62,886 nt of DNA from positions 1 to 62,886 of the forward strand of contig JBBQEX010000043.1 of assembly GCA_038321315.1 (NCBI GenBank), in the 5' to 3' direction. Below, one piece after another: positions 16-92 of the stretch. Origin of the DNA: Haliangiales bacterium. Its GTDB lineage: Bacteria; Myxococcota_A; Polyangia; Haliangiales; Haliangiaceae. Numbering within the stretch: position 1 is the stretch's first letter; each line of letters begins with the position of its first letter. Made by a program: the position numbers and the translations under genes. Under the pieces are notes generated by a model. The model had not been told where the DNA came from. It ran no database searches and saw nothing but the letters and a program-made list of their open reading frames with translations.

Positions 16-92
16 AATTGGGGCCGCTTTTCCGAGTTGCTCGAGTTGGCGCGCCAACTCGAGCAACTCGGAAAAGCGTCCCCAATCCACAG
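16..92. repeat. Copy 1 of an ~86 bp nested palindromic (hairpin-forming) intergenic repeat. Arms are ctgtg(a/g)attgggg(c/a)cgcttttccgag around a perfect inner palindrome ttgctcgagttggcgcgccaactcgagcaa. Copy 2 is at 22855-22940. The left edge may be truncated by the window start.
   Basis: Direct comparison of 1-100 with 22850-22945: near-identical ~86 nt, both with ctgtg...cacag termini and internal reverse-complement symmetry. The six-frame track shows the same peptide ([11 protein letters not shown][TP]RKSVPNPQ) translated from both copies. Confidence 0.8.

Follow-up and report, generated by a model that had tools for sequence, protein, structure and literature searches.

A near-perfect 84-nt palindrome at two intergenic sites of a Kofleriaceae-like contig, possibly a low-copy foldback repeat

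What kind of element is a near-perfect palindrome that lies twice between the genes of an uncultured soil myxobacterium? The window, that is the whole stretch of DNA analysed here, is a complete contig of 62,886 bp with 70% G+C from a Kofleriaceae-like MAG, and the named relatives of its proteins belong to Kofleriaceae or Myxococcales MAGs. A preliminary description had recognised a nested palindrome with a stem of about 40 bp, present in two intergenic copies 22.8 kb apart, and repeat finding, alignment and folding bear out both the structure and the arrangement. The copies had been placed at 16-92 and 22855-22940; the element does lie there, with boundaries that differ by a few bases. Local alignment delimits a core of 84 nt, CCTGTG...CACAGG, at 10-93 and 22854-22937, the two copies being 95% identical across 84-86 nt. 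The repeat finder assigns arms of 86 nt and 95% complementarity to 9-94 and 22853-22938, and treats each copy as an unspaced inverted repeat (4-51/52-99 and 22854-22895/22896-22937). The element and its parts are as follows.

10..93, no strand: copy 1 of the 84-nt palindromic element, with weak pairing out to 4-99
40..63, no strand: central 24-nt perfect palindrome of copy 1, CTCGAG TT GGCGCGCC AA CTCGAG
22854..22937, no strand: copy 2 of the 84-nt palindromic element
22884..22907, no strand: central 24-nt palindrome of copy 2, the same as that of copy 1
22859..22916, no strand: left arm minus CTGTG plus the centre, 58 nt, missing from the orthologous site of the closest relative (contig L018)
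22917..22936, + strand: right-arm segment AAAGCGTCCCCAATCCACAG of copy 2, the sole part kept at the orthologous L018 site

Each copy departs at two positions from a perfect palindrome. Compared with the consensus of the four half-elements, CCTGTGGATTGGGGACGCTTTTCCGAGTTGCTCGAGTTGGCG, the substitutions are G>A at element position 7 and A>C at position 15 in copy 1, and T>G at position 28 and G>T at position 62 in copy 2. None of the four is shared between the copies, each of them breaks a base pair and none is compensated, which points to independent neutral decay from one perfect-palindrome master and not to selection on the structure. The inner palindrome is perfect over 54 nt in the first copy and over 28 nt in the second, instead of the 30 nt first reported for both. 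Each central 24-mer, CTCGAGTTGGCGCGCCAACTCGAG, contains two inverted AGTTGGCG words; within the window it is found at the two copies only, even when up to 3 mismatches are allowed (0 occurrences expected, 100 shuffles), and the arms too occur nowhere else in the window. Folding predicts hairpins of -81 and -75.5 kcal/mol for the RNA of the + strand (z -12.9 and -14.4), the predicted RNA stability being extreme for either strand, and of -49.8 and -48.0 kcal/mol for the DNA; no shuffled sequence folds equally well. Upon inspection of its sequence, the arm CCTGTGGATTGGGGACGCTTTTCC is devoid of an internal stem, the sole sub-hairpin being a 4-bp CGAG/CTCG stem near the centre.

All three reading frames of the element are open. 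Peptide searches, meant to catch gene-caller ORFs running through other copies, gave no word match for the three-frame peptides among 5.8 billion protein clusters, and a frame-0 profile retrieved a single, spurious AT-rich tandem-repeat protein from 1.84 billion protein representatives. No sigma-70-like promoter was detected at either copy. Neither was a U-tract or terminator-like site found on either strand of either copy, so that the element does not qualify as an intrinsic terminator. It reached the gathering threshold of no Rfam family, the only sequence of the window to pass being a tRNA gene elsewhere; its best match in an E-value search was the model of a plant miRNA precursor, with 43.7 bits against a threshold of 90, as a generic hairpin.

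The similarity between the copies ends with the element, apart from a short left flank. Immediate neighbours are ...GGCTG-element-GCGCC... at copy 1 and ...CTGAC-element-CGGTA... at copy 2: the conserved short flanks proposed earlier hold on the left, where GGCTG(A)C is common to both copies, and fail on the right, where the sequences are unrelated. A segmental duplication is ruled out by this lack of similarity between the flanks. The preliminary description had named target-site duplications (TSDs), a transposase gene and additional copies as features to look for. Comparison of the flanks revealed no TSD and no flanking direct repeat at either copy. A Pfam scan of 40 ORFs across the window detected no IS200/IS605, RAYT or other transposase and no integrase; these ORFs otherwise encode ordinary chromosomal proteins (pstSCAB, phoU/R/B, kinases, VWA proteins, Hsp70-like proteins and others). 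The sole 'site-specific recombinase' label, at 1453-3444, belongs to PF10136, for which we take recombinase activity to be doubtful, and the start of this gene also follows the thiolase gene in the related contig L022, where no element precedes the thiolase. Nor does the 22.8-kb interval between the copies look like a genomic island or a composite transposon: it holds the thiolase, VWA proteins, pstSCAB and an EAL protein, and is partly syntenic with relatives that are free of the element.

Both copies are located 50-95 nt upstream of start codons, next to the following genes and sites.

186..1418, + strand: thiolase gene, downstream of copy 1, with an in-frame TAG at 1035-1037
21423-22415, - strand: AraC-family regulator, after the DUF4267 gene
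22419..22802, - strand: DUF4267 gene, diverging from copy 2, start at 22802
22828..22853, - strand: operator-like site of the DUF4267-AraC promoter, GTCAG-CC-AGTTGGCG-CGGCC-GGTCAC, abutting the left end of copy 2
22955..22980, + strand: operator-like site of the hydrolase promoter, GTCAC-GG-AGTTGGCG-GGCGC-GGTCAC, 17 nt to the right of copy 2
23015..23989, + strand: alpha/beta hydrolase gene, diverging from copy 2

Copy 1 ends 92 nt upstream of the thiolase ATG (186) and begins 8-9 nt from the start of the contig; since the window is a complete contig, copy 1 adjoins a contig end. This break is suggestive of further copies without proving them. A perfect palindrome of 54 nt can by itself halt a de Bruijn assembler working with k<=55, whereas copy 2, perfect over 28 nt, would presumably be traversed. 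Copy 2 is embedded in the 212-nt spacer between the divergent DUF4267 and hydrolase genes. The two operator-like sites on either side of it are paralogous, of the form GTCA(G/C)-N2-AGTTGGCG-N5-GGTCAC; they lie outside the repeat and are conserved in relatives upstream of the corresponding genes. Copy 2 is thus upstream of both promoters and operators, disrupts neither and is probably transcribed from neither gene. In the window, AGTTGGCG is confined to the element centres and to these two flanking sites, with 6 occurrences against 1.5 expected; the cores found at these sites in relatives are CCTTGGCG/CCCTGGCG or CATTGGCG/CTCTGGCG.

These paired sites merit an observation of their own. Upstream of the DUF4267-AraC operon and of the hydrolase gene they follow the pattern GTCA(C/G)-N2-(A/C)(G/C/T)(T/C)TGGCG-N5-6-GG(T/G)CAC, also at L017 8510-8545 and 9940-9975 and at L018 605-632 and 686-715. 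The two sites of one genome are more similar to each other than to their orthologues, with the variants AGTTGG in the window, CCTTGG/CCCTGG in L018 and CATTGG/CTCTGG in L017, and this likeness suggests that they change in concert with the AraC-family regulator.

The closest relative found is a soil assembly deposited in the ENA (sample ERZ28573551), whose contigs L018 and L022 share about 85-87% nucleotide identity with the window over aligned, mostly coding, stretches, L022 standing at about 87%. At the site of copy 1, L022 shows no trace of the element: its homology to the window begins at about window 115-125, and 62 nt separate the thiolase from the ORF upstream, a neighbour that is co-directional with the thiolase in the relatives. 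The element was not found at this site in the more distant relatives L023-L025 either. Since the contig end truncates copy 1's left flank, none of these is a clean empty site with both flanks visible. At the site of copy 2, L018 has the same divergent gene arrangement as the window. The alignment runs to window 22858 and restarts at 22917, an asymmetric absence of 58 nt that leaves one arm, GTGTAAAGCGTCCCCAATCCACAG, which matches the right arm of copy 2 at 20/20 nt (L018 638-657). A second, direct copy of the arm, CTGTGTAAAGCGTCCCCAGTCAC, begins 37 nt farther downstream and continues into the operator of the hydrolase gene; the arms are therefore direct and 37 nt apart in L018, whereas in the window they are inverted and spaced by ~62 nt centre-to-centre. 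The rest of the spacer is only 59-71% identical between the window and L018, so that the arm is better conserved than expected of a neutral orthologous remnant, which hints at constraint or gene conversion. No arm trace was seen in the more distant relatives L017, L019-L021 and L026, among which L019, L020, L021 and L026 differ in gene order and are uninformative for this site. As regards the neighbouring genes, the DUF4267-AraC block (window 21423-22853) is co-directional with the hydrolase gene in L017 (8515-9915) and L020 (841-2254) and inverted relative to it in the window and L018. The palindrome, or its arm, sits at this junction, a rearrangement peculiar to the lineage of the window and L018.

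The two copies in the window remain the only ones documented. Profile searches (nhmmer, full and half element) of the window and nine Kofleriaceae loci, ~165 kb in total, returned these two and the L018 remnants only; the ~100 kb of related Kofleriaceae loci thus held no third copy and two arm remnants, both in L018. In 185,579 GTDB species genomes, the exact arm pattern ATTGGGGNCGCTTTTNCGAG, which is too strict for L018-type arms with TTT instead of TTTT, gave 12 single-arm chance matches in unrelated phyla, none of them palindromic. JGI metagenomes searched with the exact mid-element pattern CGCTTTTNCGAGNTGCTCGAGTT gave 4 chance matches, non-palindromic. Both of these large DNA scans retrieve exact matches only, and their patterns spanned the TTTTNCGAG junction, which is missing from L018-type arms; a more tolerant pattern would be, for example, GATTGGGGACGCTTT at two mismatches or fewer. 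In IMG/VR, queries made of the arm, a shortened arm and the centre yielded zero or chance matches, and BLASTN of a 96 nt query against plasmids and phages nothing significant (E ~1). A search of the literature for REP elements in myxobacteria gave nothing relevant.

Precise copying between unrelated sites, together with the element's absence from one site and its truncation at the other in the nearest relative, argues for a small non-autonomous repeat, and so do the private, uncompensated decay, the harmless positions and the want of any signal for coding or for an RNA family. The reading that we prefer, and to which we give about even chances, is that of a lineage-restricted, low-copy, non-coding foldback repeat of a REPIN/MITE-like kind. 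A once-perfect 84-bp palindrome would have been copied as a unit, its flanks left behind, so that it came to occupy two or more unrelated intergenic sites on a Kofleriaceae-like chromosome. We infer mobility, a mobilising enzyme and a direction of events: an enzyme encoded elsewhere in the genome would act, or have acted, in trans on a single strand that probably folds into a hairpin of ~42 bp, and after insertion the copies would have decayed via point substitution and asymmetric hairpin deletion. The absence of TSDs argues against a classical DDE-type MITE and fits a non-duplicative, IS200/IS605-RAYT-like route, of the sort proposed for REPINs, better than DDE cut-and-paste. The insertion contexts differ, copy 1 standing before a gene that has a co-directional neighbour in relatives and copy 2 between divergent promoters, and both insertions spare conserved promoter and operator sequences. 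Nothing is in evidence for a function of the element in the cell. The REP/MITE-like character suggested at first is upheld in so far as a lone unit occurs at non-homologous sites and is absent or truncated in the closest relative; the features looked for do not bear out a dispersed family.

How close is the likeness to known systems? REPINs are REP doublets that form hairpins and are mobilised by RAYT transposases (Bertels & Rainey 2011, PMC3116915); by definition they have two conserved ends, inverted, separated by a spacer and folding into one hairpin, and asymmetric partial excision with leftover 'singlets' has been described for them (PMC3116915). The present element is likewise an extragenic, non-coding, symmetrical palindrome of the ~80-110 nt class whose two inverted ends fold into one long predicted hairpin. 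Here again TSDs are lacking, the outer ends are the best-kept part, and truncated single-arm remnants with an asymmetric 58-nt loss are found in a relative (L018). It differs from REPINs in four respects. Its arms lack a short REP palindrome, which a RAYT would recognise, as well as any recognisable GTAG-type head; its centre is a perfect palindrome where REPINs have a variable spacer; two copies are seen in the window, compared with tens to hundreds per genome that persist in related species; and the window ORFs scanned include no RAYT, whereas a REPIN system has a cognate Y1/HUH RAYT, usually repeat-flanked. MITEs are defined as elements of 50-800 bp with TSDs of 2-10 bp (PMC11602168). Our element is non-coding, falls within this size range with its 84 nt, and has arms of 42 nt (2 mismatches per copy), well above the 10-15 bp expected of MITE terminal inverted repeats; however, the TSDs required by that definition are missing at both copies, the element is all inverted repeat with no internal unique sequence, and no parent IS is known whose ends match. 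With bacterial MITEs such as Correia/NEMIS of Neisseria and ERIC/IRU of enterobacteria (reviews PMC3184786, PMC2229807, PMC10969869), it shares small size, non-coding sequence, long terminal inverted repeats, a strong predicted hairpin, intergenic positions beside promoters and presence/absence differences among related genomes. With arms devoid of a REP-type palindrome and no RAYT among the scanned ORFs, the element may work like a REPIN or a foldback MITE and is filed as neither; it is a demonstrated member of neither family. Most likely, it is a new lineage-restricted example within the broad class of small palindromic intergenic repeats.

Correia elements carry IHF sites and outward promoters and are processed by RNase III; the palindrome, without a sigma-70-like promoter, differs from them in this respect. 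PATEs transpose as single strands and possess two different subterminal hairpins and asymmetric ends, whereas our element is one full-length palindrome. Otherwise these IS200/IS605-derived palindrome-associated elements (PMC6006769) resemble it in the lack of a TSD and in a plausible dependence on DNA secondary structure. By analogy, the GGCTG(A)C motif 5' of both copies could be a target or cleavage-site motif, with the caveat that it is 5-6 nt only and, at copy 2, also part of the local operator. Three other candidates were dropped: an integron attC site, whose expected outer core motifs are not present; a protelomerase target, for which there is no hairpin-telomere context; and the IS66 end GTAAGCG, to which the GTAAA(A)GCG of the element bears a resemblance, the motif pointing outward from the centre and no IS66 gene being found among the window ORFs scanned.

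The alternative that survives best, unlikely as we consider it, is a non-mobile origin: the palindrome would have been born once at the DUF4267/hydrolase rearrangement junction, and ectopic recombination, gene conversion or template switching would have placed a single further copy at the thiolase site, leaving a two-copy scar. Such an origin would account for two known copies 22.8 kb apart on one contig, without TSD and with no further copy in the public collections scanned, and for a copy 2 placed exactly at the inversion junction of the DUF4267-AraC block relative to L017 and L020. The arm-like direct repeats at the L018 junction, one of which merges with a half-site of the hydrolase operator, are consistent with it, as is the presence of AGTTGGCG both in the element centre and in the two operators flanking copy 2, a post hoc coincidence with an estimated P of ~0.1-0.2 after correction for the choice of word. 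Against it, the unit moved precisely and without its flanks, which is unusual for ectopic recombination, and no plausible single step makes a perfect palindrome of 84 nt composed of a flank-unrelated arm and a 38-nt inner palindrome.

We find it more doubtful still that the palindrome acts on the DNA level as a cis-regulatory or architectural element, in which the neighbouring AraC-family regulator or some other factor binds the arms or the AGTTGGCG centre, or in which a supercoil-absorbing cruciform sits between divergent promoters and couples or insulates the adjacent genes. The short distances to start codons, the position of copy 2 between paralogous operator-like sites, the restriction of AGTTGGCG to these sites and the element centres, and an L018 arm conserved as well as the operators in the midst of diverged intergenic sequence would all be in keeping with such a role. 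The geometry, however, is not maintained, inverted arms in the window being matched by direct arms without a centre in L018; the thiolase promoter of L022 manages without the element, the arm has left no trace in L017, L019-L021 and L026, and the stem-breaking substitutions are uncompensated.

On the RNA level, a very stable transcribed hairpin might terminate, insulate or stabilise transcripts or be processed by RNase III, and roles of such kinds have been reported for ERIC, Correia and REP elements. The extreme predicted stability of both strands speaks for this possibility, and so does the co-directional gene just upstream of the thiolase in relatives, which may place copy 1 inside a transcript. 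We nevertheless rate it as very improbable: the terminator or mRNA-stabiliser role first envisaged finds no U-tract or terminator-like site to work with, copy 2 is upstream of both divergent promoters with their operator-like sites and is not expected to be transcribed, no Rfam family matches, and covariation is absent, all changes being disruptive.

It would be a long shot to regard the palindrome as a portable operator cassette. The word AGTTGGCG, of which the centre has an inverted pair, is this genome's own variant of the core in the two operator-like sites of the adjacent AraC-family regulon. If this were the case, the copy placed before the thiolase would have brought a further gene under the control of that regulon; alternatively, a cruciform might modulate the divergent promoters. 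The regulon would thus have grown through a mobile palindrome that evolves together with its regulator.

That the element is an artefact, namely a synthetic linker or adapter, a fold-back chimera or a de Bruijn-graph error, is scarcely credible: its centre CTCGAG-TT-GGCGCGCC-AA-CTCGAG does read like an XhoI-AscI-XhoI polylinker, copy 1 is close to the contig start and the full element is missing from all other public data searched. But the orthologous site in the independent assembly L018, from another sample, contains the 20-nt arm, bordered on either side by homologous sequence, which marks the sequence as natural and not as a library artefact. Copy 2 lies inside the contig and the assembly runs through it, CTCGAG and GGCGCGCC are nothing out of the ordinary in DNA of 70% G+C, no plasmid record matches, and a fold-back chimera is ruled out by a left side of copy 1 that is not the reverse complement of the right (two mismatches, different flanks).

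Should the small non-autonomous repeat that we favour be confirmed as a dispersed family, it would represent a small palindromic mobile element of Kofleriaceae (Myxococcota), whose members compared here are almost all metagenome assemblies. Its design would be unusual, a perfect palindrome over the full length without target duplications, and it would offer a handle on the mobilising enzyme as well as a marker by which to type strains and to recognise assembly breaks in these high-G+C genomes. At present it amounts to two copies without a partner enzyme, a minor and ordinary-looking feature, from which a practical lesson can be drawn: such palindromes can end contigs and can sit harmlessly between promoters.

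The thiolase gene itself shows two particularities. Its in-frame TAG at 1035-1037, where four relatives have AAG (Lys), gives a truncated product of 283 aa in NCBI, and these first 283 residues are 93% identical to the closest homologue; the TAG reflects a pseudogene, read-through or recoding, or a base error, and, taken with the nearby upstream element, it may be a sign that selection on the thiolase is relaxed. In the promoter region, window 134-156 carries a small palindrome, CCAAC-N9-GTTGG, which reads CCAAT-N8-ATTGG at about 1597-1620 of L022. As both arms have changed in a compensatory manner, a conserved dimeric operator is suggested, unrelated to the 84-nt element.

Several other features of the window were recorded. 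Downstream of the thiolase, 1453-5966 encodes the PF10136 protein of 663 aa (E 5e-184), together with one of 838 aa that has major-vault-protein shoulder and Band7 domains. This block of ~4.7 kb lies between the thiolase and a gene of 787 aa that is conserved; at this position L023-L025 carry different genes or none, and L022 shares at least the start of the block. The Pho cluster (window 16221-26560) is split in this lineage into pstSCAB at 16221-20299 (- strand) and phoB-phoR-phoU at 23932-26560 (- strand), with ~3.6 kb in between that comprise the EAL protein, an unannotated ORF (20626-21420), the AraC and DUF4267 genes, the palindrome and the hydrolase. A tRNA gene at 57652-57723 (- strand, 69.8 bits) is the window's sole match to an Rfam family, and no integrase lies beside it among the ORFs scanned. 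Two tandem pairs of paralogues were also noticed. One, at 11186-12697 and 12790-14886 (- strand), encodes proteins with vWF_A/VWA/YfbK_C domains that are 70-83% identical at the nucleotide level in blocks, these blocks being the repeat families D2-D4. The other, at 45405-48224 and 48221-49963 (- strand), encodes Hsp70-like proteins, one of them with a DUF3731 domain, and is followed by a DUF2760 protein.
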